A DNA stretch of 63,307 nucleotides, the filler included, from Craspedostauros australis (taxonomy: Eukaryota), in NCBI GenBank assembly GCA_030167865.1. It is 11 parts of 11 records of this genome, joined end to end, with 100 filler letters (N's around TTAATTAATTAA, not from the genome) between each part and the next. Parts side by side here need not be neighbours in the genome. Positions count along the whole stretch, not along the records: positions 9,155 to 35,675 come from JALAGF010006310.1; 10 more parts are not named here. One strand, written 5' to 3'. The translations under genes were made by a program, and so were the position numbers. The notes beneath the pieces are model-generated. The model was given only the letters and a program-made list of their open reading frames with translations, did not search any database and was not told the DNA's origin. This document shows positions 7,550-58,127 of the stretch, piece by piece. How positions within the stretch are numbered: position 1 is the stretch's first letter; each line of letters starts with the position of its first letter.

Positions 7550-8810
7550 CTAACACACACCGATGGTCATCATCATGAAGTACACGCTCCGCACTTCCAT
7601 GCGGTTCTCGTCGATGCCTTGGTATGCCTCCATCGCGTCATAGCAGATGAGCGAGAGGTCGGAGCGAACATCATTCGCAGGCATCACATTGGACAGCGAG
7701 CATCTCACCGCGTACGGAGGATTGTCGCTTCCAAGGATTTGGCAGCGGCGGAGTTTCTCGGCTGGGGTTACAGGCACGTCTCCCTTTGGTCCTCCTGGAA
7801 TGAGGATCAGGAATGGGCAGAACGGGCAGTCAACACACCACGAGAACAAAGGCCCTTTGGTCAGGCACAGTGGGCACCACGCGTTGTCGTTGTCTCGCCG
7901 AGATGCGGTCTCGATCAATCCGTCCAGGTAGGAGCGGATGGGGCGCACGTTGTAGATCGGCCCTGGTGGGCTCGCCGAGGCCGTATGGTGGAGGCCAATG
8001 CCAGGCATCGCGATCTCGTCGCTTTCGGTCTCGTCAACTTCGCTCTCATCGGACGAGAACAAGTTGTCGCTCATCATGCGCCTTGCGTCGACTTGCGGTC
8101 CGTAGTAGCCGTAGTCGTTTGGGTTGCGAATCCCAACCACCTCAACCGACTCTTCGTCTTCGTTGTTGGTACCGTTGTTGTACCCGTTGGTCAAGTCTCC
8201 GTCGACGACCATGAGAGCCATGTCCTCCATGAGGTCTTCGATGTTGCTCTCCGCGTCGTTGATGTGTGTTGTCACGATTTCGTGGTTGGTGAGAATTTTG
8301 TCTTCGCTCACATTTTCGATGTTGCGCGCGATTTCTCCATCCTCCACAATTTCGTGACACAACATCACATCATCGATGGTGACCAGCACGACGTCGTCCA
8401 TGCCGTCCATCCCATCGGTAGCTACATTGGCTGAGTCTGCGTCCTTCATCGCCGCTCTCAACTTGAAGCACTGCACGATCTTGTGGCCGGTTTTGCCACA
8501 GAACTTGCACTTGCCGTTGAATCCGCCGACGGTGAAGTTGCCCTTGCCACGGTTGCCGTTCTTCTTGGCACCACCGCCTTGCTTGCCGTTGCCGCTCTTG
8601 GTAGGGGAGCGACAGTCCGTTTTCTTGTGCCCGTAGACGCCACAGTTGCGAAAGTTGCCCTTGAACCCGCCGATTGCGGCCAGGGCCATCTCCTCCTTGC
8701 CATGGCTGCCTCCTTCGCGCTTAGAACCATGTTTGGTATGGTGGCGGTCGGAGGTGAGGCACACGGCCTCGCGGATGTCTTCAACTGTCATCTTGTCTTC
8801 CTTTCCTGCG
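7550..8810 (-). CDS. Copia gag C-terminal part (zinc knuckles) with long acidic and Cys-rich extension; 5' end interrupted by an LTR insertion
   Basis: Knuckles 'FRNCGVYGHKKTDC' (degenerate) and 'CKFCGKTGHKIVQC'. Homologous to the gag at 37785-39071. The frame is open up to the LTR at 8811. Confidence 0.75.
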
Positions 8811-9054
8811 TGTCGAGATGTACATGTGAGTATGTGTCGAGATGTACGAGTATATGTGCATCGTTCACCCGTTATTCTCTCATACGCACTTGGACGGTAT
8901 AACTACATTCGTGTCGATAGTACGATGTGATTCGTCAGAATTACAGGGGAAATGGAACACACGAAAAGGGGCAAGATTTCTGGAGGAAATTTGCAAATGA
9001 CGATTTCTGAGAGAATTGGAAATATCGTCCGTCCATCCATCAATGGTACCAAGA
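8811..9054 (+). mobile_element. Copia-type LTR (family A) 5' part, nested in gag, truncated by scaffold end
   Basis: Starts TGTCGAGATG and is near-identical to 19404-19645. Confidence 0.8.
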
Positions 9055-12907: not shown

Positions 12908-13354
12908 ATCAATAGCAACAACAGTAACAGTAACAGAAACACTTTCGACAAAGAGTGTTGACTACTACCGATTCTCCGTGCGCGGAGCCTTCCAACAGAC
13001 TAGTTGACACTCTTCCCTCAGTGGCAGGGGATGCCGAGATCTGTTCCGTTCTCGCTGCCTCTCTTGGCTCCACGAGACGAAGCTCTTCGTTTGTTGTGAC
13101 ATTGAGGATAGCTCGTAGTCGTACGGATGTTGTGATTGCCACACTCACCGTCACTCTGGTGCGATACGAGTCGGGACATCCATTGAGCCTCTTCCTCCAC
13201 AACCAAACCAATACGCAGCCATCATATCATATCATATGATACTTGCAAAACAGGAATCAATCCGGGACGATCGCCTGCGCTGGCGGTAACACACAGAGTT
13301 GGTTCATCCATGCGTCCAGTAGATCTTTCTGCAGAATCAACATCACGGTGGATC

Positions 13355-14773
13355 ATGTCAAAACGCCCTCGTGTCAACTCCATCTCCAGCTCGTCAGAGC
13401 CTGGCTTTCAATACGAAGAACGCACTATCGGAGAACGCACTATCGATCAGGGCGTGAAGGTTGTGCACGTCAACAAGCGAGCAAAGAGGGCAGATTGCAG
13501 TGATGACAACAACGACAACGACAAGGACTGCGACAACGATAACGACAACGACCATGAGAAAGATGTGATCGTTGTCAAGTTCCATCAGTTCTCAAACATC
13601 GATTTCAAGGCAAAACAACGCACATACATATCCTCTCCTGCCTTCGAGTGCGGTGGTGTGCGATGGAACTTGAAGCTCACTTCCTCAACGGACAGCACAC
13701 TGTCAGGAGAAGGGCCCAACTCATCCCAAACCTACCATCTTGGAGTGTACCTGTTTCTTGACGACGCGCCATGGCTATTGGGAGAAGAGTATGCTGTCAT
13801 CAGTACAATATCGATCCCCAAGCTTGCCATCTCTGATCGCGGGGAAGGGCCAGACTTGTATCGTGTGGATACCAATGGTGCATGGGGAAGCGACGATTGC
13901 ACGACCGTGAACAAAGTGCTCGATGATGGGCTCGATGACGACACCCTCTCTGTGCACGTCAAGTTCCATCAACTTCAACACATCCACAATCGCTGGACAC
14001 CATCCCTCGCCTTCAACAGGGACAGGCTCAAGATGCTTCGGACCGAGACGCATGCCGACATCACCTTTGTGGTCGGCACCGGTGATGAACAGCAACGCAT
14101 CAAGGCCAACACCATGTTCATACTGGTGGGAAATCCAGCCATGCGATTGATCATGGCTGGAGCCACACCCGTGGAAACTACGTCTGCACCCGCGACAGCT
14201 GTTGGTGGCAGCATTGGCGATGAAAAGTGCATCTCGCTGCCAGAAACCAATCCACGCCACTTTCGATCCATGCTCCGATTCATCTATGCGGATGATGTAT
14301 CCTTCATCACAGATGATACCACACAAGCCGAGCTGCGAGATCTGTTGCTTGTCGCCCATCTCTTCGGTTGCTGGAAGCTCAAGATCGTGGTGGAGACGAG
14401 ACTCGCAGCAAAGTATCTGGATGTGGCTTCATGTGTCGATCTGCTGGTGTTCGCAGATGCGCACAGGTGCTGTGTGTTGGAGGAAGAGTGTGTCAAGGTG
14501 GTCCTCAAGAACTTGACTGAGGTGTTCCAGCGTGGCCATCACATCCAGCTGGCCAGATCAGGCGAGTTGATGAAGAAGATAGCTGAGAGTCCCGGTCACA
14601 AGCGCAGCAGCGGAGACGACAGGTTCGATGGAATGCGAATCGATGAGCTGTACAGGTGGTTGGATGAGAGGGAGGATGTGGTGTTGGAGGGGGATATGGG
14701 GCGGGGATGTTTGTTGGAGAGGGTTCGATCACTGGAGAGCAAGGGGCAGAGTGCGAATGGGAGAGCCGATTGA
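13355..14773 (+). CDS. MATH-BTB/POZ domain protein (SPOP-like Cullin-3 adaptor), paralogue 1
   Basis: MATH-like 'SSPAFECGGVRWNLKL...LGVYLFL'; BTB 'ADITFVVG...IKAN...FRSMLRFIYAD'; BACK-like 'CVDLLVFADAHRCCVLEEEC'. Intronless ORF; the start could alternatively be 13310. Confidence 0.88.
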   Translation: MSKRPRVNSISSSSEPGFQYEERTIGERTIDQGVKVVHVNKRAKRADCSDDNNDNDKDCDNDNDNDHEKDVIVVKFHQFSNIDFKAKQRTYISSPAFECGGVRWNLKLTSSTDSTLSGEGPNSSQTYHLGVYLFLDDAPWLLGEEYAVISTISIPKLAISDRGEGPDLYRVDTNGAWGSDDCTTVNKVLDDGLDDDTLSVHVKFHQLQHIHNRWTPSLAFNRDRLKMLRTETHADITFVVGTGDEQQRIKANTMFILVGNPAMRLIMAGATPVETTSAPATAVGGSIGDEKCISLPETNPRHFRSMLRFIYADDVSFITDDTTQAELRDLLLVAHLFGCWKLKIVVETRLAAKYLDVASCVDLLVFADAHRCCVLEEECVKVVLKNLTEVFQRGHHIQLARSGELMKKIAESPGHKRSSGDDRFDGMRIDELYRWLDEREDVVLEGDMGRGCLLERVRSLESKGQSANGRAD

Positions 14774-16647
14774 TTGGATGTGCCAAGAATGAGATGGGGA
14801 TGTAGAGGAGAGTGAGGAGCAGAGCGAAGTAGGTGATGAAGTGGGCAATGGGGTAAGAGTGCGCACTTCACACAATGCAGATACACAAGCATTGATAAGC
14901 GTGAGTACTGTGCGTTGGGATGTATCATACCTGTAGAGCATACTGGGTTATTCTCTTGTTGTCTGCTCAATCCGAGACGAGGACATGCATCAACCAATGG
15001 CTGTGTCAACCAATGGTTGTGTCAATGGGTTGCTCGCGCCTGAAGACGTCGTCGTTGTGGAGCACAGAAGATGGTCCAGATCTTTACTCCTGCAGGCATG
15101 GGCCCCGGCAGCAACCATCATGTCCGACTCACGCTCGCAGAGATCTGATACAACTAGATGTATTATATAATACTGTACTATTATATAATATGATATGATC
15201 TATAGTTGTCAAACTGAATGTCTCTGGACAGGGGATGCAGTGCACAAGAGTGCGTCGCAGCGATTTCGGAAGGTGGCACATTTGAACTTGTTAGTTAGGA
15301 TTCGGGCGTAGTCGGCGCGAATCGGTGGGGGATGCCTCGTGAATCTGCTGGGTTCGAGATAGCCGTGTAATGCAGTTCAAGAGAGGTGTACTGATTGAAG
15401 AGTTGTTACTGTAACAATGAGTAGAAGAGTGCTTTGTAGCTAATCCTTGTCTGTTTATTATGAGTTAGCTTGTAGTGTTAGTAGGGTGAAGAAACAATGC
15501 CACACAACTTGGCAAGACCCTGCACTGATGTACTTGGTTCAGTGCTTGAGGGTAGACAATCATTACAGTGCCTTGCTCTCCATACATGTAGATACACTGT
15601 AGTGTAGGTCATGACACTCAATAGTGACAGTCATGAAGCAGTGGCTGTGGCTGGAGCTTGCCCTTGGATTCCATTGCTCAAGTTGAAGCGGATTGGATAC
15701 ACGCGTCAAGAGTACAGCAATGGTGCAGTAGTCATTATCATGGAGGGAATCGAGGTGTGTTGTAGTCAAAGGATCTGAGGAGCATATAGTTCCCAAGGTG
15801 AGGTGTGAGTCAGATCGGTCATGTTTGAGTCATGATGGACTTGTGAATGGAGGAGAGAAAGGAGGAGAAAAGACTTGGTGGTCGATCAAGTCGGAAGATT
15901 TCGCGCCAAAACAAGAATTTCTCCCATCGGGGTCGATACCGTGTCCGGTAATAGTCTGTCCCTTATTCAATCTCAGCACCAGCCGTTGAATCAAATCTGT
16001 GGATGACAGGCATGTCCTTGCTCCGTCCGGTGTCTGTCCCGGTAGCATTGTTCCGATCAGAGTCAACCACACCAACAGAGGAGCTGAGGGGTCGCACGTT
16101 CGACCAACATCGAAGAAATGAAAGGAATCAGTTGGACATTGCAGCCACCGGATACATGAAATTAAAGACCGTAGATTGTTCCTTGGCAGTTACATTGCGC
16201 GAAACAGTTGGGAGAGGCAGCTTCCTATTCATAATCGCTCTCCAAACAACAACAAGCAAAAGTAGAGAGTGTCTGGGATAGAATGCACACAAAAGCACGC
16301 GATATTGTGTGGAGCAACAAACAACACGAAGAACCGGGTGGTGGTTTGAGAACCCAAAACAACATGAAGAAACACGCGATGTGGGAAGGGTGTTGTTTGC
16401 CATTTGGTCGCACAACCCTACCACGATAAAACGTCGCGACAAATCGTCGCGGTATGTTTCGTTTGTGTCAGGACGCACCAGTTCACGCACACCGCTAGTA
16501 GAAGTGTGCGACCTGACACAAGGGGTCCTCCATCGTGGGGAAAAATCATAATGGATATCCTTCGTCTGCCTCCCTTCCAGGCATCCGTCTCTTCCTCCAT
16601 CCCTCACTTACTCTCATTCTCGCTTCAGAACCACATCATCTTCGACG

Positions 16648-17940
16648 ATGTCTCAACCACTCAACAACAACGAGACCGTGAAGGTCGTTCACGTCAACAA
16701 GCAGGGAAAGAACGAGAATGACGACAACAACGACGATGATCATGAGAAACACTTGATTGTCGTGAAGTTCCATCAGTTCTCTGAGATCAACTACAAGAAA
16801 GACACAGACAAGTACTCTCCTGTCTTTGAGCGTGGCGGTGCTCGGTGGAAGTTGCTACTACGATTCTCAAAACAAGGTGCACAGTCAGGGGAAGGCTCTG
16901 ACTCACCTCTAGGATATTGTCTTGGGGTGTATCTTTGTCTCGACGAAGCGCCATGGTTGTTGGGTGAAGAGTACTCTGTGAAGTACACAGCCTCGATTCC
17001 CAAGTTGGGTATCACCAACACCATGGGAGAAAAAACATATCCACATCGTGCGGACAATTATGCCGGATGGGGATGGACTAGAGTTGCGACCATGAAACAG
17101 GTGCTCGACCATGGACTCGATGATGACACCCTCTCTGTCCACATCAAGTTCGATCACCTCCAACACATCAGCAAGCGCTGGACTCCATCCCTCAGTTTCA
17201 ACAAAGAACGGCTCAAGATGATTCGTACAGGAACTCTCGCCGACATCACCTTCGTTGTTGGCACCGGCGATCAGCAACAACGCATCAAGGCGAATACCAT
17301 GTTCGTGTTAGCAGGAGCACCAGCCATGAGGTCATTCATTGATGAAGCTACAACTGTCGAGGAGGAAGATGGTGATGGAAAGTCCATCTCGTTTCCAACG
17401 ATCGACCCTGACCATTTCCGATTCATGCTTCGTTTCATCTACGCTGATGACACATCCTTCCTCACAGATGACACGACCCAACGTCAATTGCAAGATCTGC
17501 TGATCGTCGCCAACCGCTTCGGTTGTTGGAAGCTCAAGATCTTGCTGGAGACGAAGATGACAGCGAAGCATCTCCACCTGTCATCATGCGTCGATCTTCT
17601 GTTGTTCGCAGATGCGAATAGCTGCTATGTGCTGAAAGAAGAGTGCATCAAGGTGGTTAGGAAGAATATTGCCAAAGTGTGGCAGCAACGTGAGGTCGGT
17701 CAACTAATCGAGTCTGTTCAGTTGATGAAGGAAGTCCACAAGGCCGGAAGGGACCCCTTGTTCATGTACGGGGGGCACAGTTGCGCTGAATTCAACAAAA
17801 TGCGGATCGATGAGCTGTACGAATGGTTGGAGAAAAGAGATGATGTGATGTTGGAAGAGGACATGGACCGGTCCTCTCTGTTGAAGAAGATTCGATCATT
17901 GGAGACCAAGCAGCAGAACGGCAATAGCGAAGCCAATTGA
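16648..17940 (+). CDS. MATH-BTB/POZ domain protein, paralogue 2
   Basis: Colinear with paralogue 1 (for example 'LDDDTLSVH', 'ADITFVVGTGD', 'MLRFIYADD'); 3' flanks are also homologous. Confidence 0.9.
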   Translation: MSQPLNNNETVKVVHVNKQGKNENDDNNDDDHEKHLIVVKFHQFSEINYKKDTDKYSPVFERGGARWKLLLRFSKQGAQSGEGSDSPLGYCLGVYLCLDEAPWLLGEEYSVKYTASIPKLGITNTMGEKTYPHRADNYAGWGWTRVATMKQVLDHGLDDDTLSVHIKFDHLQHISKRWTPSLSFNKERLKMIRTGTLADITFVVGTGDQQQRIKANTMFVLAGAPAMRSFIDEATTVEEEDGDGKSISFPTIDPDHFRFMLRFIYADDTSFLTDDTTQRQLQDLLIVANRFGCWKLKILLETKMTAKHLHLSSCVDLLLFADANSCYVLKEECIKVVRKNIAKVWQQREVGQLIESVQLMKEVHKAGRDPLFMYGGHSCAEFNKMRIDELYEWLEKRDDVMLEEDMDRSSLLKKIRSLETKQQNGNSEAN

Positions 17941-18634
17941 TTGGATGTGGCAAGGACGAGATTGGGATGAGGTGGGTGATAAAATAGGAACGTACACTCC
18001 ACGACGCACTCCACGACATGCTGGCATTGATAAGCATTGATAAGCTTGAGCACCTTGAGGCACCAATCCAGCATGGAGTGGAGTGTTGGTACTTTGCTCT
18101 GTTCTCTGTTCATTCTGAAGCAGGAGCATGGACGACTCAGTGGTTATGTCAGAGGCTTGCTCGCAGTTGAAGATGTTGTTGTTGTGGAGCACAGAAGATG
18201 AGCCAGATCCTTCCTCCTCCATGCATGGGCCCCAACAGCAACCATCGTGGCCGACTCACGCTCGCAGAGATCTGATAGATGTACTATTCTATTCTACGAT
18301 CTACTATGTAGAACTGAGTGTCCCAGGACAGGGGATGTAGTACACACAGAGCGCATCGTGACGGTTTTGGATTGTGGCACATTTGAACTTGTTCTCCAAA
18401 CGTCTTTAACGGCTGGATCTGTTGTGTTCTGAATTGCCCCAACAAACAACAACCAACACAGTCGCTCTGGGGCTTCCGGTAAAACGGACTATCGGACTAA
18501 CGAACAGCATCACTATTTGGTTAACGGACAATCTTAGTCGTGAATGAGAAATTCTTAGTCCTGGTTGGAATGTCGTACTTGACATTTATTGTTTTATCAA
18601 TACGTGATTGAACTGTCTCTAGCCTACAGCGAAA

Positions 18635-19085
18635 AAAAGATGCCCTAAAATAGGGCACCTTTTTAAAAGATGCCCTATTTAGGGCACGTTTTGAAAAGGT
18701 GCCCTATTTAAGGCACGTTTTGAAAAGATGCCCTATATAAGGCACGTTTTGAAAAGGTGCCCTATATAAGGCACGTTTTGTTTCACAATAGCCCAGCCAC
18801 GATGGGCACATTCCACAAACCCATCAACGGGGAACGATGTGGACGTCACTGAATGACGAATCAGAACACTAATACTTATCGTCATCTTGGCGTGACATGC
18901 CTTTGATAATCCTCTGTCGTCGCGTTGTTGCGCGGGATTTGCTCTTGCTCTTTCTGTCGTCCAATCGGCTGCGAACAGCGACGTGTGGATGAGGGAGAAA
19001 AGGTGCCCTATTTAGGGCACGTTTTGAAAAGATGCCCTAATTTAAGGCACGTTTTGAAAAGGTGCCCTATTTTAGGGCATCTTTT
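18635..19085. mobile_element. MITE/foldback-like element with palindromic ~29-30-bp terminal tandem repeats
   Basis: Perfect 29-bp terminal inverted repeat AAAAGATGCCCTAAAATAGGGCACCTTTT / AAAAGGTGCCCTATTTTAGGGCATCTTTT; 5 units at the left end and 3 at the right around a unique ~220-bp core. Confidence 0.7.
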
Positions 19086-19403
19086 GACATCGCACAAATA
19101 CGAGTCGCGAGTGGCGACGACAGTGTCTGAAGGACATGGCAACCAAGACTAATAAAATCTCATTCACGACTAACATTGTTCGTAAGTCCGTTAAAATGCA
19201 CCCGAACCACCATGTCCGGCAGTTTACCGGAAGCCCCTGTTGTGATGTGTCACCATGATCCTCATCTGCGATCTGCACAACACATGGCAGACAACAACGG
19301 AGACAACTTGCTGGATCGTCGCAATCAGAGCAAACGTCCGCGGATCCATGGCATAGTAGTACGACTACGACTACGAGCACGTACGGAGAGGCCACTTCAG
19401 AGA

Positions 19404-22240: not shown

Positions 22241-23905
22241 TTAAATATCTCCCTCTGTTTCTTCTTCCACATCAACGCCGATCAAATCAATGATCTCTGC
22301 TGATCCAGGATTGTTATCCATGGCATCATCCATCTTTGCTGTCTCATTGTGATGGAAAGGAGGATCGTCAGTTGAGAGACCAATCGTTTTCGCGCTGGTC
22401 TGATTGACAGCAGCATTGGAATGCACCTCCCGGGTAAGGACAGCAGCTGGGTTTGATGAGTGAAACTTAGATGCATCGATTACCACCTTCAGCCACTCGC
22501 GTTGTCTCAGCATCTTCCACTGTGCTGTGCTCAATTTCGCGAAATTGTACTGTTTGTCTCCAACTGAGATGAAGCCAATGTTTCGCTCACGTGCTCGACT
22601 GGATAAGTGTTGGTGGAACAGGTCAAGGCTGGTTGAATTGGACGCATCATATCGTTGTCTTGGCCTTGGTACTTGGCGAGCCTCCTTTGATGGCTGTTGA
22701 GGAAGGAGGAAGTAGCGCAGGAAATGTGGAGACACATTGATTGAGTGGTTGGAGATCAGCATTTCCCTTTTCAACTCACCAGCTCCAATCATGAGTTTGA
22801 TGATATTGCCAATTCTTCTTGGATGGCTGCATTGCTTTGACGTGTACAGCTCTGTGCATTGCAGCACCTGTTTGTGAAGGTGGCCACTGGCCTCAAGCCG
22901 AAGGCCAGCTTCTTCAAACACCACATTGGTCCGCCAGGAGTTGCCCTGTGCGCGCCACCAATCGTCCAATTGCCAAGAGGAATCAATTTCGTTGCAAATT
23001 GCAACAGCCTCCTTGTATACGCCGTTGCTGTAGGACACCCCACAAGATGGGTGCTGTCGAGTGATTGGTTGCAGCATGTTGTGTAGATTCCGATGCAGTT
23101 GCAACACAGTCAGATGCAAAGTGTCCTTTGCGTGCCCCTTGTACTGCTTGATGGTGTTCGACACGTCCCTGTAGTACCATCTCATGCATTCAGAGTTGGT
23201 GGCGAAGTCTCCCAGAATTGTTGCATTTGCTTGGCCGACAGAAACTGGCTTCCCAGCCAGAATGGCATCGCATATGGCTGTGTTTATTGCACCAGCTAGT
23301 CCGGAATGCGCAGAGAAGTACTGCTTGGGGTAGCCTGCGCTCAGACAAAGGTGCCCAAGGAACTTGCATATTGCATTGGGCGACTGGATGCAGAATGTAT
23401 TCCCTTTCTGTGTCCAATCCACGTTGTGGCGACATCTCCAAAATTGTTCAAATGCAGTTGATGCCTCCTGCGACAATATGACGTGCCTGTAGTCAAGGCG
23501 GCTTTCTCCAACCTTCACATTTGGATATGTGATGGTCCATCGGCCTGTCAAGTGATCTTTCCTGGGAGCCTTCTGACTTGGTTGACAAAATGCGACGCTC
23601 CTGGCTCCAGTCTCGAACATAGTGTAGAGCAGGGCGATGTTCCTGTACGTTTCTGGATTGGGTGCAGCGCACTTCTGAAATCTGCGAATGTCAGCCAGCA
23701 TGATCGGTTCCGCCCGGAGCACGTCCTGTGAGCTGTTCATTTGGACGCCCCTGAGGTTCAGTTCGATCTGAGCGTAAGTGTGCGATTTCAATCTCACTGC
23801 TCCAATTCCTTTTGCGTAGGCGATGTCTCTCCAAGACGGGAATCGCCGAATTAACTCGTCATAGGCCCAACACACCTTGACATGGGCACAAGTCAGCCAT
23901 TTCAT
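22241..23905 (-). CDS. Tyrosine recombinase (phage-integrase fold) with long C-terminal extension; Crypton-like, probably catalytically impaired and 5'-truncated
   Basis: Box I 'RNIALLYTMFETGARS', catalytic-Lys region 'YPNVKVG', box II 'GYPKQYFSAHSGLAG', then 'LGDF...SECMRWY' with the putative nucleophile Tyr. 554 codons are open. Confidence 0.8.
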   Translation of the reverse strand: MKWLTCAHVKVCWAYDELIRRFPSWRDIAYAKGIGAVRLKSHTYAQIELNLRGVQMNSSQDVLRAEPIMLADIRRFQKCAAPNPETYRNIALLYTMFETGARSVAFCQPSQKAPRKDHLTGRWTITYPNVKVGESRLDYRHVILSQEASTAFEQFWRCRHNVDWTQKGNTFCIQSPNAICKFLGHLCLSAGYPKQYFSAHSGLAGAINTAICDAILAGKPVSVGQANATILGDFATNSECMRWYYRDVSNTIKQYKGHAKDTLHLTVLQLHRNLHNMLQPITRQHPSCGVSYSNGVYKEAVAICNEIDSSWQLDDWWRAQGNSWRTNVVFEEAGLRLEASGHLHKQVLQCTELYTSKQCSHPRRIGNIIKLMIGAGELKREMLISNHSINVSPHFLRYFLLPQQPSKEARQVPRPRQRYDASNSTSLDLFHQHLSSRARERNIGFISVGDKQYNFAKLSTAQWKMLRQREWLKVVIDASKFHSSNPAAVLTREVHSNAAVNQTSAKTIGLSTDDPPFHHNETAKMDDAMDNNPGSAEIIDLIGVDVEEETEGDI

Positions 23906-24406
23906 GGGACTTGTGCCATCCTCCTGTAGTTGGAATGTGTTAACAATAGTTCATTTGATGTTGACAGATAGTTCATTGTGTGTTGACTGTTGTATCACGG
24001 TCTCACATGTTGTCGTGTGTTGTGGCTGGTTGTACCATGTGGCAGTGTGTGTGTGTGAGCACGTGGATGTGTGAGTATCACAGTTGATGGTGTTGACTTC
24101 CCCCTCCTCTCCCACAAGCCAGCCATTTCATGGGACTTGTGCCATCCTCCTGTAGTTGGAATGGTGTTGACTTCCCCCTCCTCCCCCACAAGTCAGCCAT
24201 TTCATGGGACTTGTGCCATCCTCCTGTAGTTGGAATGTGTTAACAATAGTTCATTTGATGTTGACTGTTGCATCGTGGTCTCACGTGTTGCTGTGTGTTG
24301 TGGCTGGTTGTACTGTGTGGCAGTGTGTGTGCATGTGTGTGTGTGAGCACGTGGATGTGTGAGTATCACAGTTGATGGTGTTGACTTCCCCCTCCTCCCC
24401 CACAAG
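23887..24406. repeat. Modular tandem array (A ~74 bp, B ~21 bp, C ~110-120 bp)
   Basis: Repeated GCCATTTCATGGGACTTGTGCCATCCTCCTGTAGTTGGAATG; module junctions at TGTTRAC. Confidence 0.9.
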
Positions 24407-24759
24407 NNNNNNNNNNNNNNNNNNNNNNNNNNNNNNNNNNNNNNNNNNNNNNNNNNGTTGTTTGTGTTGTACTCATGCATCACTATCTCCATCACCAAGT
24501 TGATTCAGAGTGTGGTTCTTGTTGTCACACATGCGTATGGACATGGTGAACACGTGTATGTGCGTACATGTACATGACACTGTGTATTGCAAGTACTGGT
24601 TGATGTTGAGTACTTTGATCATCAATATCTCATGTCGTAGTGGTCCGTTGAAGGTGGTAGAGGTGTTGACGTGTACGTATGGACGTGGTGCGTGTGTGTA
24701 TACACACAGATGTACGTGAACATGTGTACATCATGGTGTAGCGTGGTGTACATGTTTAA

Positions 24760-25148: not shown

Positions 25149-25395
25149 TTAGGGTTAGGGTTAGGGTTTACAGTAACCTGTAAGCTTAATTGTCCCACCG
25201 TGTTATTTCGAAAAGTGACATTTCAACGCAATCGAAGACTGGTGATCACAGCTACTGACCTGTATCCATGCACTGTCATGTCAACACTGTTGAGCCTGTT
25301 GTATCCCATTATTCTTGTGTGATATTATGTGTCATGGTGTGCAGTGTCATAGTCACATGTGGCATACTGTGTTATCATGTGTGTTGTGGTGTGGC
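25149..25395 (+). repeat. ~230-bp direct repeat copy 1, starting with (TTAGGG)3 and a hairpin
   Basis: Aligns by eye with 35363-35605. Confidence 0.85.
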
Positions 25396-25815
25396 AGTGT
25401 GTGAGCACGTGGATGTGTGAGCACGTGGATGTGTGAGTATCACAGTTGATGGTGTTGACTTCCCCCTCCTCCCCCACAAGTCAGCCATTTCATGGGACTT
25501 GTGCCATCCTCCNNNNNNNNNNNNNNNNNNNTTCCCCCTCCTCCCCCACAAGTCAGCCATTTCATGGGACTTGTGCCATCCTCCAGTAGTTGGAATGGTG
25601 TTGACAGATAGTTCATTTGGTGTTGACGGTTGCATCACGGTCTCACATGTTGTTGTGTGTTGTGGCTGGTTGTACCGTGTGGCAGTGTGTGCGTGTGTGT
25701 GAGCATGTGGATGTGTGAGTATCACAGTTGATGGTGTTGACTTCCCCCTCCTCCCCCACAAGTCAGCCATTTCATGGGACTTGTGCCATCCTCCTGTAGT
25801 TGGAATGGTGTTGTT
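25396..25815. repeat. Second modular A/B/C tandem array
   Basis: Same modules as 23887-24406. Confidence 0.9.
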
Positions 25816-26171
25816 CCCCCTCCTCCCCCTCTTATATCCAACCCCATTCTCCTAATTTTGCATCTCGGACACACTCCAGGACAAGAACAAACTAAAAAAT
25901 ACGAACGAAAGGACAGACGCGCCGCAAAACAAAACAAAAACAAAACGAAAACAAAATCACCGGGAAATCACCACGACAATGATCACGTCAATGATCACCA
26001 GCAACTCTGGCCACACGTCAACAGTCATCACAACGTCTCACAGCATCGTCCATTCCCATCAATTGGTCCCTCGTGCAACACTCCAACATGCTCATTCAAC
26101 GCTGGAACGACTGCCTTCGCCTCCACACACACAAGCACAAAGCACTTGGGAAGGAACTGTGGTGGATATCA

Positions 26172-26283: not shown

Positions 26284-28009
26284 TACGAACATGAACTGTT
26301 TTGTCAACACCAACAACAACGGTAGCAGCAGCAGCAAGCTCCAAACTGTCTCGAGCTCCAACCATGACAACGACAACAACGACAACGATGGCATGCAGCA
26401 ATTGCATCCTCCACCATGGCCTTGGCTCCAAAGCCACGAATAATTTCACTGCACGCTTGAGCCACTGTGGCTAAGGCTGCCACCGACGCCGAACTACACT
26501 TGGTACGTCCGGAGGTGCTGAAGCACCGTGCTTATCGTCACGTCCGCACTCCATCCATCATGCGTTGTGCTGCTTTGCCTTGCGCTGTGTTGCGTTGTAC
26601 TACAATTGAATAATTTCCCACACTGCACGTCATTTCTCACAAAGCTCTGTTGTGCTCGCTTTTCCTCTCATCGTCACACTGTCCCATTTCGCATCTCGCC
26701 TCTCCGTGCCACACCATCCACCCTTGCATTGTGCGAAATGAGGCATCCTTGTCAACAGCAAAGGCACAGCACATGACAGAGAACAATACGTATACTGTAA
26801 AATATACAGAATAGTGATCTCTTCGTATTCTACTCTATTCTACTCTATTTCACTCCTCTTGCCGGTTCTCCATTGCAATGGCTGAACAGACGCAAAGATC
26901 ATGATATCATCCACTGCAGCCATCAAACCAACATCGACCGCAACACTACACACAACAGCGACTTCAGCAACAGCACTGTCGCCAAGATGACTGACAATCT
27001 CTGCACCAACACCAATTCCAACAACAGCAGCAGCAGCAATCTCCAATGTGAATCCAATGTTGTTGGCAAGAATGGTGCACAGCATTGCAACCATATCAAT
27101 AGTCGTCTCGCCTCTGAAGCAACGATCGGCTTTATCGACTCTTTGCGCTGGATCGCGAGCAAAACGCAAGCATCCAAAACTGCCACAAGCGCACAATGGC
27201 TATGCAGACCCCTACTAATTGTACTAATTGTACCAACTGCACTACTGCACTCGTGTGCGACTACACGGCGCAGCAACAGATGCACAACCATAGATGTGTG
27301 CGTGTGTATCCAGCGACGGCCAATACGCTTTTCGAGACAGACACGACAAGGAAGGCATTACGCATGATCCGCGGATCGCCATTCAACTTGTCACGGTATG
27401 GTGGCAGCGGCGAGCATGCCATTGCATGAGAATAGAGTGCTGCACTTGCACTTTGCTGCAACAATGATGGCAACAATGGTGTTGATGTCAATGCAGATGC
27501 AGTCAACAAGGCAGCTGAGTTCAGTTCCATGGTGTGATTAGAAACAGGTCGAATAGATGGTATCAACGTGTGGTACTGATGGATGACCCATGCATCCATT
27601 GCTGTGGCATCCACAGTGGATCGGTGTTGTTGCTGTTGCTGATGCTGCTGTTGCACTTCGCATTCCGTCCGCTGCGTCTGTCGCAGCAACTGATCGGTGC
27701 CAAACAACATGCGCCATCATGCTGATCAACGTACGTATCCATCATGGGCAGCCCATCATGGGCAGCCCATCACCATGTTTGTATTGCGAATAATGCTGCA
27801 TCGGAATATGCCAGCAGACCTTCAAAATACAAATTGCACCATCGTGCTCGTGACCCTCCAATTGGTCCGTCCATGGCAACGCGCATAGCCACGCGCATAG
27901 CCACGCGCACATTTTCGACGCGAAACACGCATTGTACCACAGCTGATGTACAATGGCGTGCAAACAAGGATGTCCCTATAGCACCTACACTAAATCCGAC
28001 CGTTAAATC

Positions 28010-28772
28010 GTGACCGCCACCTCCCAATTAGTCTATCCACACTGACGCGCGCATTTATGATCACATATCCAGAGCACGAGTGGCTGGTATGTGTGGTATG
28101 CGAAAAATACGTGGAGAAATTCAGAAATGCAGAGATGATCATGTTCTCGGTGTCACAGAACAATACCGATTGCTCCACCGTGTTCGCCACCTCCAAATTA
28201 CTCTATCTGTACTAACATGAGCAGTTACGATTACATATCCAGAGCACGAGTGGCTGGTATGTGTGGTGTGTGACAAATACGTGGAAAAATTCAGAAATGC
28301 AGAGATGATCATGTTCTCGGCGTCACAGAGCAATTACAGTTGCTCCACCGTGTTCGCCACCTCCCAATTAGTCTATCCACACTGACGCGCGCATTTATGA
28401 TCACATATCCAGAGCACGAGTGGCTGGTATGTGTGGTATGCGACAAATACGTGGAGAAATTCAGAAATGCAGAGATGATCATGTTCTCGGTGTCACAGAA
28501 CAATACCGATTGCTCCATCGGGACCGCCACCTCCAAATTACTCTATCTGTACTAACACGAGCAGTTACGATTACATATCCAGAGCACGAGTGGCTGGTAT
28601 GTGTGGTATGTGACAAATACGTGGAGAAATTCAGAAATGCAGAGATGATCATGTTCTCGGTGTCACAGAACAATACCGATTGCTCCATCGTGACCGCCAC
28701 CTCCCAATTAGTCTATCCGCACTAACATGCGCAACTGCGAGTACATATCCAGAGCACGAGTGGCTGGTATGT
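28010..28772. repeat. 170-bp tandem repeat, ~4.5 copies, alternating two variants
   Basis: CGCCACCTCC recurs at 28015, 28185, 28355, 28525, 28695. Confidence 0.95.
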
Positions 28773-35362: not shown

Positions 35363-35596
35363 GTTAGGGTTAGGGTTTACAGTAACCTGTAACCTTAGGG
35401 TAACAACCGTGTTATTTCAAAAAGTGACAATTCAACGCAATCGAAGCCTAGTGCTCACAGCAGCTCATCTGTATCCAAGCACTGTCATGTCGACACTGTT
35501 GAGCGTGTTGTATCCCATATTCTTGTGTGATATAATGTGTCATGGTGTGCAGTGTCATAGTCACATGTGGCATACTGTGTTATTGTGTGCATAGTG

Positions 35597-35605
<9 letters not shown>
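35363..35605 (+). repeat. ~230-bp direct repeat copy 2, starting with (TTAGGG)2 and followed by (TG)n to 35675
   Basis: Homologous to 25149-25395. Confidence 0.85.
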
Positions 35606-35675
<70 letters not shown>

Positions 35676-43010: not shown

Positions 43011-45029
43011 TCAAGCGGTGTAGATTTGAAGCTCGGGTGGGCCGTCTTTGGCCAGTTTCTGCTTCTCTTCTGGTGTGAGATAGTTGACGAAGCGGATGCC
43101 TCGATCCGTGTCTACAAGACCGATCCGCGTGGCCGCTTCTGCCCAGTACTGTTTTCCAGCACCGGAACTGGAGCGCTTTGTCGTCGAGAGGCGGCTGAAC
43201 TCTTCGATGACTTCTGTGGGCAACTCGCTGCATGCTCTGCTCTGCATGTGCGATTTGTACATGTTCTGCGCAGCCTGATATATCCCTCGGATGCATCCGG
43301 GGAAGTAGGAGGCGCCACGGCCGCGATATCCCAATGGCAAATTCTTGCAGTGGCGGCAACGCATCCCAACTTGACCGTGCGCGACGGGATTGTTGCTTCC
43401 TCGTGAGCGCACGTTGGGCTCGTGCTCTCCAGAGATGAAAACCTCGATCTGGAGGCGGAGTAATACTTGGTTCGGGGTGAGCCGTTTGTAATCTGACAGC
43501 AGGCAGAGAATGCGTGGCAGTTCGCGCATCTGGCTGTCGACGCTTGGAATTGCTTCGTTGGTGGGGCTTGTGTTGGATGTGGACTCGAGGTCTCGTGAAA
43601 GGAAATCCTTGGTCAGTTTCAGCTGGAGTTCGTAGTCGGGGTGTCTGTACAACCCTGGTCGACCTGGGTTGAGCATGTCGATATCAATCGTGTTGCAAGG
43701 TGAGAGGAAGTGGGGCAGGCCGGCATTTTGTGCCCAGATCTCTGCTGTCGATGACGCCTTTTCTTGTGATGCCGCCACTGGGTCAGGAATTGACGATCGC
43801 TCCGCTTCAGTATCATCTGCGTTGTTCTGGGTTGATCCCTCGGTGGCCAACGGTGGTGATGAAGCTGCGGATGAAGCACTAGATTGGTCGTCCAAGTGCT
43901 CATCTCCCACGGTTGCATCGCTTTGTGCTGGTTCCTTATGCTCGATGGGTCTGTCAGAAGTCGTTGCGAGTGTTGTTGGTGGCGCGGCCATCGTCGGTGG
44001 CGTTGGCCGTGGCGATGCTCGTGCATGAGGAGTCGGCACAAGCACAGACACAGGCACAAGAGCTTGCGGCGCAGGCCGTCGATACGTCACATCGCGTGTC
44101 TGGTTAGCGAAATGCGTCGGCGGAAGCCGCCTCACGCAGATTCGTTGCTGTGGTGGCTGAATGTAACGAATCTCTCGCACGTTGCTTGCGGGCACCTGAG
44201 CGTACACCTCAGATTCGTTGGGAGGTGGGCCTCGAACGATGGAGAAGTTGTCCTGCGTGCGTGCATTCGTTGGTGGCAAAGAATGCATGACGGAATAGGT
44301 ATGGGGGTGTCCTGGCGCCCCAGATGGATAGGTCAGAGTCGGCGCAAATGGCTCATTCAGAACGTTCGGCTGGAAAGAGGCTGGAGCTGGAAGGTACAGC
44401 TCCCCCCTTTCTCCAACAAGAAGCTGCTGGGCAGGCATTGGAGCTGGACGGAGTATAACAATTCTTGGGCTGCTGTCTCTGCTCTGCCCGTATGGCTCTG
44501 CGAAGGCTTGGTGATGGAACGAAGAAGGAACAACCAGATTTTCGTTTGCCTGGTATGCTTGGTGCCCTGTTGCGATATGTGGCTGTGCAGCGTAGCTGTA
44601 TGCTTCGGGCATAACATGCTCTATCAATTCATGCGGTCCTGCACCATCATAGTGCTCCACAGTCAGAGACCTCACAGTATCCGAGATGGCGCCGTATTGA
44701 TTCGCCTGCGGTGTTCCCGTTGCTGCATTTTCCGTTGGTCTGACGTGTTCGGGTTGGTGGTAGTGGTGTTGCTGATGATGGAGGTACGGCTGGTACTGCT
44801 GGTGCTGTTGGGGTTGGCGGTGTTGGTTTGGAGTGCCTGGGTTTGAATGAAATCGCACACTCGGTGAAAAGGGTGGGGGCGCCGCTTCACCGGGGCGAGA
44901 AGCAGCGAGATCTCGCCGTACCTTCTTCGTCTTCTGTCGAGAGGGGCCGTGTTGCTGGCGACCTTCGGAGCAAGAAGGGAAATGAGAATGCAGAATATAC
45001 CCATGCGATTCGAGATGCAGGGTAGGCAT
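43011..45029 (-). CDS. Diatom-type protein with a C-terminal Cys/His domain (putative nucleic-acid or zinc binding) after a long Pro/Gln-rich disordered region
   Basis: 'RLQIEVF...GQVGMRCRHC...GASYFP...GIYQAAQNM...C...GKQYWAEAA...GLVD...GIRF' resembles a motif pattern I recall from diatom hypothetical proteins. Start and introns are uncertain. Confidence 0.75.
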   Translation of the reverse strand: MPTLHLESHGYILHSHFPSCSEGRQQHGPSRQKTKKVRRDLAASRPGEAAPPPFSPSVRFHSNPGTPNQHRQPQQHQQYQPYLHHQQHHYHQPEHVRPTENAATGTPQANQYGAISDTVRSLTVEHYDGAGPHELIEHVMPEAYSYAAQPHIATGHQAYQANENLVVPSSFHHQAFAEPYGQSRDSSPRIVILRPAPMPAQQLLVGERGELYLPAPASFQPNVLNEPFAPTLTYPSGAPGHPHTYSVMHSLPPTNARTQDNFSIVRGPPPNESEVYAQVPASNVREIRYIQPPQQRICVRRLPPTHFANQTRDVTYRRPAPQALVPVSVLVPTPHARASPRPTPPTMAAPPTTLATTSDRPIEHKEPAQSDATVGDEHLDDQSSASSAASSPPLATEGSTQNNADDTEAERSSIPDPVAASQEKASSTAEIWAQNAGLPHFLSPCNTIDIDMLNPGRPGLYRHPDYELQLKLTKDFLSRDLESTSNTSPTNEAIPSVDSQMRELPRILCLLSDYKRLTPNQVLLRLQIEVFISGEHEPNVRSRGSNNPVAHGQVGMRCRHCKNLPLGYRGRGASYFPGCIRGIYQAAQNMYKSHMQSRACSELPTEVIEEFSRLSTTKRSSSGAGKQYWAEAATRIGLVDTDRGIRFVNYLTPEEKQKLAKDGPPELQIYTA

Positions 45030-45619
45030 GGCAAAGCACGGTGAGGCGAAGTAAGGCAAGGCCAGAAGAAATGAACGGGGTGATCGTTATACACATGAAG
45101 TCAAACGGGTTGTCGCGGACGAGAGGATGGGAGGATCAGGGCTCAGTCAAGCAAGATCCTCCAACACCGGTATCCGTACGAGTACTTGCGAGTGTGCAGA
45201 TGCAACATTCGCCGAACCCTTCGCATGATCCGAGACCGTGCAATCGTGATCGTAGTCATCAGTCTTACCATGACATGCGTCCCGTTTCGGAGCTCTGAGT
45301 GAAACGCTCCCATCAGCATCGGCGTTGGTGGCCATGGTATGCATGCGTGGTTCGTTCCATCGAGGATCTGCAGTCCCCACTTCCGCGTCGACTCGGCGCG
45401 CTCCTTGCTCATCGTACTGAACGCTGGGTGCTCGTGTTCGTCCTCTTGGTGCTTCCATGGCTCTGGCAACTGGTTGCATCACAATTGGTCTCGGGAAAGC
45501 CAAAGCCGGTTGCCGGTTNNNNNNNNNNNNNNNNNNNNNNNNNNNNNNNNNNNNNNNNNNNNTTAATTAATTAANNNNNNNNNNNNNNNNNNNNNNNNNN
45601 NNNNNNNNNNNNNNNNNNC

Positions 45620-55500: not shown

Positions 55501-56816
55501 ACTCGGGTTGTCAGCTGAGCATCCGTGCGCCACGGATCTTTCTCTTTCTGTGTTTGCTGTTTGTCTTCCATTACTTGGAGCCGCCACAACAGATACCTGG
55601 GCGAGGTTACCCATTCGCATCCGTGGAACCCATGTCCCAGATGGCTGTGACTCGCGGTTGCTCAGATGTTTGCTCCAATCCTCCAACTTTCTCCTCCCTG
55701 TTTGTGGCGTCCTCGCGGTTTCGCATAGCAATGAATGGTGCGTCGCGTGGACACGTGCTCTGTTGCGAATTCGACAAGAGGGCGCGGCATCGCCGATAAT
55801 TCCGTCTGTCCGTCCATCACGACACGTTGTTTCGCGGGAAAGAACGCACAACTTTGCTCGATTTGGGCACAGATGTTTGCAAACGACTCAATCGACCACC
55901 ATTTACCTCGGCACAGATGTGCGTTCCATTTCTTGTGCACGGACGTTCGCGAATGATTGATGAAGTCTGTTCATGTCGCAGTGACCCACGTCGACGCGTT
56001 GGCTTCGGGGGAAGATGTTCGTGCTTCGTATGAGAGAGTCGTCGAATAGGGGCGTTCTGGGCCTTTAAATGCCAAACGGGTGCTGTGACCCATCGTTCAA
56101 TCATCAACGAGCTAAGAGCCACACGCAACCCATGAGTATTTAGAGTAGTGTGAACGATGTCGATTTACGTATCAAGAGGAACGCAAGTGACGAACTGCCA
56201 GCAGGCGCGGCTTCTTCTTGGGTAGAACTGCAATGTGGGTGTTGCTGACGCTCCTGGTGCATGTTCATCACAGAATCCATGTCATGTGGTCCCAACGCTG
56301 CTGGTACCGCTGCAGGTGTGGCTCCTACTCGTACTGCCGTGGAGTGTGGAGTAGGCGCACTTCCAAGCAGCGACCTCGATTCGTTGGTCCGAGAAACGCA
56401 GAAACCGCTGTGATGGTGGCGACCAACGCTCATCAATCACACACGGCAAGCAGACAGCAACCGCGAAATCAAATCGTTGCTCTCCGCAGCGCTCGCGCAG
56501 CGTAGCCTCGGTTTCTCGTCTCAGCATTCACCGCAGTCATCGCAGTCACCGATGTACTCTATTCCATTGTACCGTCATAATACACTCTCCATACATACCA
56601 ATGCTCGTACAAACTCTACGAGCACTCTGCGTACGATCAGCAGCCCACCAGACAGACAGACCAATCAGGCAGCCAATTGATCGGTCTCATAAAAATCGTA
56701 TCGATCAGCTCTCAACACAAACACAGCTCATCAAACCAACCCAAAGCACTCCACAACAAAGCAATCCACAACAAAGCAATCCACAGCAAGACAGACAAGA
56801 CAGAACCACACGCAAC

Positions 56817-58127
56817 ATGAGCGCCTTCCTCCATAACCTCGATCTGAACAAGATCAAGACCATCCAGCGCAGCAACCAGCACAAGATTCCATATCTCCCA
56901 TTCCCAATCAAGCTCCACCAGCTCCTCACCGACGTCGAAGAACAAGGTTTCGAGGACATCATTTCTTGGATGCCTGACAACGAGAACGCATTCCGCGTCC
57001 ATGATCGAAAGCGGTTTGTGGAACTCGTCATGCCAAGGTACTTCCGCCAGACGCACATGCGGTCCTTCACCAGACAGCTGAGGAACTACGGTTTCGTGAG
57101 GATGACGCGTGGCAGGGGCAAGAACAGCGCATACCACCATGAGCAATTCTGCCGCAACGACTTCGAGTCCGCAAAGCGCGTCGGCAACCTCAACTCTCGC
57201 CACAATGCCGCCGTCGCATCCGCTGATACATCGCCATCCTCGGCGAAGGCTGCATCGGCGGTGTCGAAGAATGTCCAGAAACTCAAGAAGATGCCCAAGT
57301 TCGCACCTATTAGACAGTCAGCGTGTCCCTTGACGACGCTCAGCGAGAAGACGTACAGCGACATGATCGCATCAGCGGTGCTCTCCAACGCGAAGGTCGG
57401 CAACAGGAGCGTTCAAGCCGACGACGCTCTTCCATCTTCCGTTGTCCCCATCAACTCAATCGTTCAGATCTTCAGCAAGCGGGTGAGCGATGCCTCATCT
57501 TCCAGCGTATCCGTTCTTCCTCCTCCAAGCCAGCAGATCGCATCCGATCCAGAGAACGACGATGCCAGCCAAGCTTGTTCCATGCAAGACTGCACGTCAA
57601 TGAAAGCGCCGCTGGATGTTGATGGCCTGTCAACGTTAGATGCAACCCACATCGCGCGCAAACAGTCCGCGGTGGCATGTGGCCCTGTGAGACCATCTTG
57701 TTACAACAGCGCCACCACGCAAAGAGACGACTTTGAAGGCCAGGGTTACTTCCCAATCCCATGCGCCACCACGGGCAGCAGCATCGACACATTGTTGAGC
57801 CGCCATGAGAGTTTGGCGTTGCCTAATATCTTCCCGTTGGCTGGTACCGAACAGGATATCGAGGCCGGAAAAGAAGAGCGTCGACCAAGCTTGGTGTCAC
57901 TAGAAGGGTGGGATGAAGTTATTGATACTGTGAAGGAGCCCGCCTGGGATGGTGATACCAACGGTAATTCCAATGGCGATGGTGACGATGACATGGATAT
58001 CCAGAAAGGACCATTCTTGCTGGATGATGCCTTGCCGGTGCCAGTAAGCACTTGCTCGTACAGCGACACTCAGGCTGTGCCGATGCACCAGCTTAGCTCG
58101 GTACCTTCCTGCATCGTGGAGTTGTAG
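56817..58127 (+). CDS. Heat shock factor (HSF) family transcription factor
   Basis: HSF DNA-binding domain 'PFPIKLHQLL...IISW...AFRVHD...FVELVMPRYFRQTHMRSFTRQLRNYGF' followed by a disordered C-terminus. Confidence 0.93.
   Translation: MSAFLHNLDLNKIKTIQRSNQHKIPYLPFPIKLHQLLTDVEEQGFEDIISWMPDNENAFRVHDRKRFVELVMPRYFRQTHMRSFTRQLRNYGFVRMTRGRGKNSAYHHEQFCRNDFESAKRVGNLNSRHNAAVASADTSPSSAKAASAVSKNVQKLKKMPKFAPIRQSACPLTTLSEKTYSDMIASAVLSNAKVGNRSVQADDALPSSVVPINSIVQIFSKRVSDASSSSVSVLPPPSQQIASDPENDDASQACSMQDCTSMKAPLDVDGLSTLDATHIARKQSAVACGPVRPSCYNSATTQRDDFEGQGYFPIPCATTGSSIDTLLSRHESLALPNIFPLAGTEQDIEAGKEERRPSLVSLEGWDEVIDTVKEPAWDGDTNGNSNGDGDDDMDIQKGPFLLDDALPVPVSTCSYSDTQAVPMHQLSSVPSCIVEL

Follow-up and report, generated by a model that had tools for sequence, protein, structure and literature searches.

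The locus and its surroundings

The DNA analysed here, referred to as the window, is a stretch of 63,307 nt from Craspedostauros australis, a gap-rich draft sequence with about 70 runs of N. On the minus strand, positions 22241..23905 encode a protein of 554 aa (P0001) in one uninterrupted frame, as the earlier note on this DNA had reported; from stop to stop, the open frame extends from 22241 to 23950. The ORF is single-copy within the window. Among the 105 other stop-to-stop ORFs of at least 110 aa, the only Pfam matches were two MATH-BTB proteins, one HSF-type protein, and one weak CCHC knuckle. The ORFs with MATH and BTB domains (13187-14770 and 16552-17937, both on the plus strand) are neighbours and likely tandem paralogues. 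The HSF-type DNA-binding domain (E 1.2e-17) is in a 590-aa ORF at 56355-58124 (plus strand). Both kinds of ORF are compatible with a protist host such as a diatom, although neither is diagnostic. The zinc knuckle is borderline (20.7 bits versus a cut-off of 20.8) and occurs in a 450-aa ORF at 7553-8902 (minus strand) with no reverse transcriptase (RT) nearby; this ORF is possibly a gag-like remnant. A 691-aa open frame at 43014-45086 (minus strand) has no Pfam match. No tRNA genes were identified in the window.

The window also contains repeats other than those that adjoin the ORF. At 18524-19183, 51-nt inverted repeats (84% complementary) surround two arrays of 29- to 30-nt palindromic tandem repeats; the arrangement, about 660 bp long, resembles that of a small TIR element or MITE. 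A 170-nt tandem repeat is present in 4.5 copies at 28009-28772 and shows a higher-order periodicity of 340 nt (93%).

Architecture of the encoded protein

The unique part of the ORF (22241..23886; residues ~8-554 and the stop codon) has neither stop nor frameshift and is homologous to a family of tyrosine recombinases (YRs). All parts of the ORF described here are on the minus strand. Residues ~8-59 (23729..23884) resemble the distal helices of the Cre N-terminal (core-binding) domain, based on hhalign and an AlphaFold model, at low confidence (pLDDT 50-59). They are followed by a Cre-like catalytic domain (residues ~60-255; 23141..23728), supported by hhalign, AlphaFold, and Foldseek. The next region (residues ~256-485; 22451..23140) is conserved across the family and is modelled as a helical part plus a small alpha/beta module. 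The protein ends in a non-conserved acidic tail (residues ~486-554 and the stop codon; 22241..22450) that is disordered in the model, with pLDDT below 50 from residue 493.

The motifs that had been proposed as the recombinase signature, in the order R (TGARS), K (VKVG), HSGL, LGDF, and Tyr (MRWY), each occur at the place previously named. By hhalign, the codon for R102 in TGARS (23600..23602) corresponds to Cre R173 (Arg-I) and that for K131 in VKVG (23513..23515) to Cre K201. HSGL is encoded by CAT TCC GGA CTA and contains H200 (Cre H289) and Leu203, which occupies the Arg-II position (Cre R292). The Leu203 codon, read directly at 23297..23299, is CTA, one base from the Arg codon CGA as had been pointed out. 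Phe234 in LGDF (23204..23206) is at the Trp/His-III position (Cre W315), and Tyr244 (TAC; 23174..23176), in MRWY, is at the position of the catalytic nucleophile (Cre Y324). The catalytic set R-K-H-R-(H/W)-Y is incomplete in P0001: R102, K131, H200, and Y244 are kept, and Leu203 and Phe234 replace the other two residues.

Assignment to the tyrosine recombinases

Sequence-library searches gave little. Pfam returned nothing above noise for P0001, and PF00589 (Phage_integrase) did not match at E<=10. No Pfam YR model scored above its threshold in any family member; in two of 18 PF00589 gave sub-threshold scores, the best being 18.5 bits versus a cut-off of 27.1. P0001 had no match in a sequence search of the PDB, and the family profile retrieved only a chance antibody match (E 1.6).

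Profile and structure comparisons point to the YR fold. We compared the 18-sequence family profile (A1) with P1 Cre using hhalign, which gave Prob 38.9 and E 3.2e-4 over 222 columns. In this alignment all six Cre catalytic residues (R173, K201, H289, R292, W315, and Y324) fall on conserved family positions, and a second profile made without P0001-P0005 gave the same register. The same comparison with lambda Int gave no match (Prob 0.15). The AlphaFold model of P0001, built on A1, has a mean pLDDT of 73.3 and a pTM of 0.72. Foldseek against the PDB returned 15 matches to this model at E<=1e-3, and all of those listed are Cre or Cre-derived (Tre) chains. Cre chains head the list (E 1.7e-4 and weaker, prob 1.00); XerH, XerA, XerD, an MRSA integrase, lambda Int, and topoisomerase IB come next. 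In the viral library BFVD, the matches are generic phage integrases. Protein-language-model neighbours, which we treat only as a lead, are clusters with Phage_integrase, ALOG, NDC10_II, and GCR1_C; the score of whole P0001 to the NDC10_II/GCR1_C clusters is 0.93. Overall, the modelled fold of P0001 is that of a tyrosine recombinase (Cre/Xer/Int). The YR identity proposed earlier from motifs is thus upheld by the Cre/Xer fold in Foldseek and the catalytic register in hhalign; integrase-fold matches, whose absence was to have counted against it, were found.

Relatives of P0001

An exhaustive phmmer search of 1.84 billion representative proteins identified 24 relatives at E<=1e-3; of these, 16 reach E<=1e-10 and 5 reach E<=1e-30. 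The best relative (E 4e-71) is 32-34% identical and covers query residues 11-484. Family counts, like profile A1, refer to 18 aligned sequences, P0001 included. Word-index homologue searches with P0001 and with A1 gave no match, and with A3 only P0006 (JGI) and P0026 (Logan) were retrieved. A related-locus search with family profile A2 identified no relative in metagenome or viral (IMG/VR) contigs. The corresponding search with P0006, a full-length relative, retrieved the contig of P0006 itself (L003) and a bacterial contig (L004) that is spurious.

No other ORF on the 3308-nt contig of P0006, the one relative followed to its surrounding DNA, exceeds 81 aa. The end of that contig (3211-3308) carries five copies of a 21-nt tandem repeat. 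A distant relative, P0011 (1283 aa), has a WW domain (E 4.4e-9) upstream of its YR region; either a fusion or a faulty gene model may be the cause. The maximum-likelihood tree places P0001 as the sister of P0002-P0004 (support 99/95), and its tip branch is long (1.26 versus 0.23-0.43 for the sister tips).

The family as a whole has the catalytic set. Across the alignment, Arg-I is R in 17 of 18 members, Lys is K in 15 of 18, and Tyr is Y in 17 of 18. The two positions at which P0001 departs from the canonical set behave differently. The Trp/His-III position is W in 10 of 18 members and F in 6 of 18, and the latter include all five members of the closest clade (P0001-P0005). Because Phe is common to all five, LGDF is a character of the whole clade and not damage. 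Arg-II, a transition-state-stabilising residue in tyrosine recombinases, is R in 13 of 18 members, and within the closest clade its change to Leu is private to P0001. Since this residue is replaced in four of the 17 other aligned members (by Cys, Lys, Ser, and Gln; the Cys is that of P0006), its loss may not always mean a dead copy.

The C-terminal region

The earlier note had described about 300 aa of unrecognised C terminus. The lack of a Pfam or known-fold match holds; residues ~256-485 (~230 aa) are conserved, and the last part is the acidic tail. Folded alone, residues ~256-485 reach a pLDDT of 79.8. Foldseek against the PDB gave no match to this model at E<=0.001, the best rows having E about 1 or weaker. 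The best VIA-align result (Z 6.1) covers 48 residues of a helical hairpin and is generic; the comparison barely extended to model residues about 110-238, with the small alpha/beta module at the end. The language-model score of the C-terminal part to the GCR1_C/NDC10_II cluster is 0.76, below any useful threshold. At E<=10, none of the 18 members matches PF12550 (GCR1_C), PF16787 (NDC10_II), or DUF3504 (PF12012), so the absence of GCR1_C that had been noted for P0001 extends to the family. There was also no match at E<=10 to the Starship captain domain DUF3435, whose accession we take to be PF11917.

Truncation at a satellite array

The 5' end of the ORF does not belong to the family. Its ATG and first six codons (MKWLTC; 23887..23905) come from a copy of a satellite repeat (23887-23965) that is 100% identical to 24187-24265. 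The homology of P0001 to its relatives begins directly below 23887, which places a junction at 23886/23887. This junction is within contiguous sequence, and the nearest N gap is at 24407. The satellite block that abuts the ORF (23887..24406) has units of ~74 and ~280-300 nt and ends at that gap. A second block at 25389..25830 is 86-88% identical to the first. An adjoining 285-nt sequence (25154-25438) has an 85% identical copy at 35363-35641, 10 kb away, and is a dispersed repeat unrelated to the YR ORF.

What precedes the junction in the relatives is missing here. The relatives' matches to P0001 start at residue 269 in P0002, 506 in P0003, 135 in P0004, and 97 in both P0005 and P0006, and alignment A1 has a conserved block of ~85-100 residues ahead of the P0001 start point. 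We searched the 63-kb window with all 24 relatives by tblastn; 22 had matches, all at the ORF locus only. An HMM of the N-terminal block, run against all six-frame segments of the window, had a best E of 0.093, on the wrong strand. As the ATG and first six codons are in satellite and the window does not contain the conserved N-terminal residues, the gene is 5'-truncated at 23886/23887, with ~85-100 codons gone. The Cre alignment of P0001 begins at Cre residue 84, so the protein presumably lacks counterparts to the first helices of Cre's core-binding domain.

The satellite had also been proposed as the body of the element. In the window comparison, satellite-like sequence occurs only on the 5' side and nothing similar recurs downstream of the ORF; it interrupts the ORF and does not bound an element. 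The proposal is not supported: the satellite marks where the gene was cut, and nothing shows that it is part of an element.

Beyond the junction, the damage is slight. The remaining 547 codons contain no stop and no frameshift, and P0001 has the conserved residue at 71 of the 105 columns that do not vary among its four closest relatives; the corresponding figure for intact P0005 is 71 of 106. GC3 is 0.55, versus 0.56-0.61 in neighbouring host-like ORFs. Because what remains of the frame is still open and shows no greater divergence than an intact relative, the damage is limited and probably recent, or else sampling is sparse. With the first ~85-100 codons lost and Leu in place of Arg-II, it is very unlikely that this copy recombines DNA. 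The earlier view of a probably recently inactivated copy is upheld: the truncation and Leu203 point to inactivity, and recency is probable given the open frame.

Comparison with known systems

The best structural matches of P0001 are Cre of phage P1 and XerH, XerA, and XerD, and the six Cre catalytic positions align. Unlike Cre, P0001 is eukaryotic and carries an extra C-terminal region of ~230 aa without a recognised fold; identity is about 16%, and Leu and Phe occupy the Arg-II and W315 positions. Like CryptonF of fungi and oomycetes and the Ndc10/Gcr1-type derivatives, it is a eukaryotic RT-less YR with a C-terminal extension, but unlike CryptonF it has no GCR1_C. It shares with DUF3504 and other CryptonA-derived domesticated genes the YR fold and the loss of a catalytic residue; it differs in that PF12012 is unmatched and most of its relatives keep the full catalytic set. 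The lack of a PF11917-type match separates it from Starship captains.

Unlike DIRS, Ngaro, and VIPER, neither P0001 nor its relatives are linked to RT or RNase H (RH). By Pfam, RT, RNase H, rve, capsid, and polymerase domains are absent from all 105 other window ORFs, a count read from sequence with ~70 N runs. RT, RNase H, and rve domains are absent from all 24 relatives, and the contig of P0006 has no RT. The earlier statement that no RT is linked is borne out within the limits set by the scaffold gaps.

In current use, according to the available passages of PMC13465315, a Crypton is a eukaryotic RT-less YR element. The combination found here is the same, with a YR present and RT and RH absent from the window ORFs, the relatives, and the P0006 contig, as far as scaffold gaps allow. 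As a eukaryotic RT-less YR, P0001 is a Crypton-type recombinase by definition.

Within the Cryptons, the closest description is that of CryptonS. As described in the available parts of Kojima and Jurka 2011 (PMC3212892), CryptonS occurs in seven oomycetes and the diatom Phaeodactylum tricornutum. Its YR protein has no GCR1_C and a C-terminal region conserved within the group, its terminal direct repeats are 5-6 bp (mostly TATGG; CTGTAAG in the diatom), and the elements are mostly 2.8-4.7 kb. The P0001 family likewise lacks RT and GCR1_C and has one YR protein whose C-terminal region is conserved, a likeness to CryptonS by description only. Relatives with lengths of 549-602 aa would fit CryptonS-like elements of about 2.8-3.3 kb. 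We searched for short motifs of CryptonS ends (TATGG, CTGTAAG, and TTACTG), and their occurrences are uninformative with a single copy. For diatom YR DNA elements we found no further description beyond PMC3212892: the words 'diatom', 'stramenopile', and 'oomycete' are absent from the available text of PMC13465315, and the available passages of PMC12130899 are on other subjects.

Origin and state of the locus

We infer that the source of P0001 was a transposon. The reading that we favour, with a probability of roughly 0.6, sees in the ORF what is left of a Crypton-type element, possibly CryptonS, after 5' truncation and mutation of Arg-II. The source element would have been an RT-less, single-ORF tyrosine-recombinase element. 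Intact members of the family have an N-terminal region of ~100 aa, a Cre-like R-K-H-R-(W/F)-Y domain, and the conserved ~230-aa C-terminal region. If they act as Cre does and as the published Crypton model proposes, they would cut and rejoin DNA via a 3'-phosphotyrosine at the equivalent of Tyr244, so that the element would be excised as a circle and inserted at a short matching core sequence. The copy in the window would have lost its first ~85-100 codons at the junction with the local satellite array, in which an ATG happens to lie in frame. Leu in place of Arg-II would add to the truncation, making this a dead-end copy.

The earlier note had gone further and suggested a new YR DNA-element family. 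That was an overreach, given that a eukaryotic RT-less YR is a Crypton by definition (PMC13465315, in the passages available) and that the architecture is as described for CryptonS (PMC3212892, likewise, and by description only). A narrower form of the idea is that the 24-member family is a separate, undescribed lineage of eukaryotic RT-less YRs, not CryptonS. This lineage would have its own N-terminal region, a ~230-aa C-terminal module without a known fold, and one clade that uses Phe for Trp/His. We hold this to be possible and offer it tentatively.

A feature that counts against the remnant reading is the open frame, as 554 codons is long for a dead gene. The ORF could instead be a domesticated, host-retained gene derived from a YR, its protein made from the satellite ATG or another start and serving a non-catalytic role, for example in DNA binding. 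DUF3504 genes, which derive from Cryptons and are without catalytic residues, are a model for such a fate. The frame is open and has diverged no further than that of an intact relative, its GC3 is close to that of the neighbouring host-like ORFs, it is single-copy in the window, and it has lost Arg-II, a loss also described for domesticated YRs in the available parts of PMC3212892. These observations are set against a start codon that is an accident of the repeat, an N-terminal domain that is missing a part, and the long terminal branch of P0001, and on balance we consider domestication unlikely.

The gaps in the scaffold also count against the remnant reading, as those at 24407-24456 and 25513-25531, both within 2 kb upstream, could hide sequence. 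The gene could then be complete, with its N-terminal region in an upstream exon beyond a satellite-containing intron, or lost from the assembly in gaps or a mis-join; a living Crypton-type copy with Leu at Arg-II would then be possible. An AG is present just before the start of homology, and the homology of P0001 starts at the same alignment column as P0015, so an exon boundary at this place is conceivable. However, the junction is in contiguous sequence away from the gaps, no N-terminal homology occurs anywhere in the 63 kb, and a satellite-filled intron of more than 2 kb would be required, all of which makes a complete gene quite improbable.

Least credible, and to our minds barely tenable, is an origin of P0001 as the integrase of some larger element, whose remaining genes would be lost or in gaps. 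That element could be a retroelement of the DIRS/Ngaro type, or virus-like and integrated (a polinton-like virus, a virophage, or a piece of a giant virus). YRs do occur in such elements and the ORF with the weak CCHC knuckle is 14 kb away along the window, but RT, RH, capsid, and polymerase domains are absent from the other window ORFs and RT from the relatives, no relative is found in IMG/VR contigs, the BFVD matches are generic, and P0006 is alone on its contig.

On the favoured reading of a Crypton-type remnant, this copy alone is one more inactive transposon remnant in a repeat-rich scaffold. Were the family indeed a separate lineage, the window copy would be its first genomic anchor. The wider value is modest and comes from the family, a eukaryotic YR group that Pfam models do not detect, with a C-terminal region of no recognisable fold and a clade that carries Phe. 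The family could help in the annotation of Crypton-type elements, which are usually overlooked in protist genomes.
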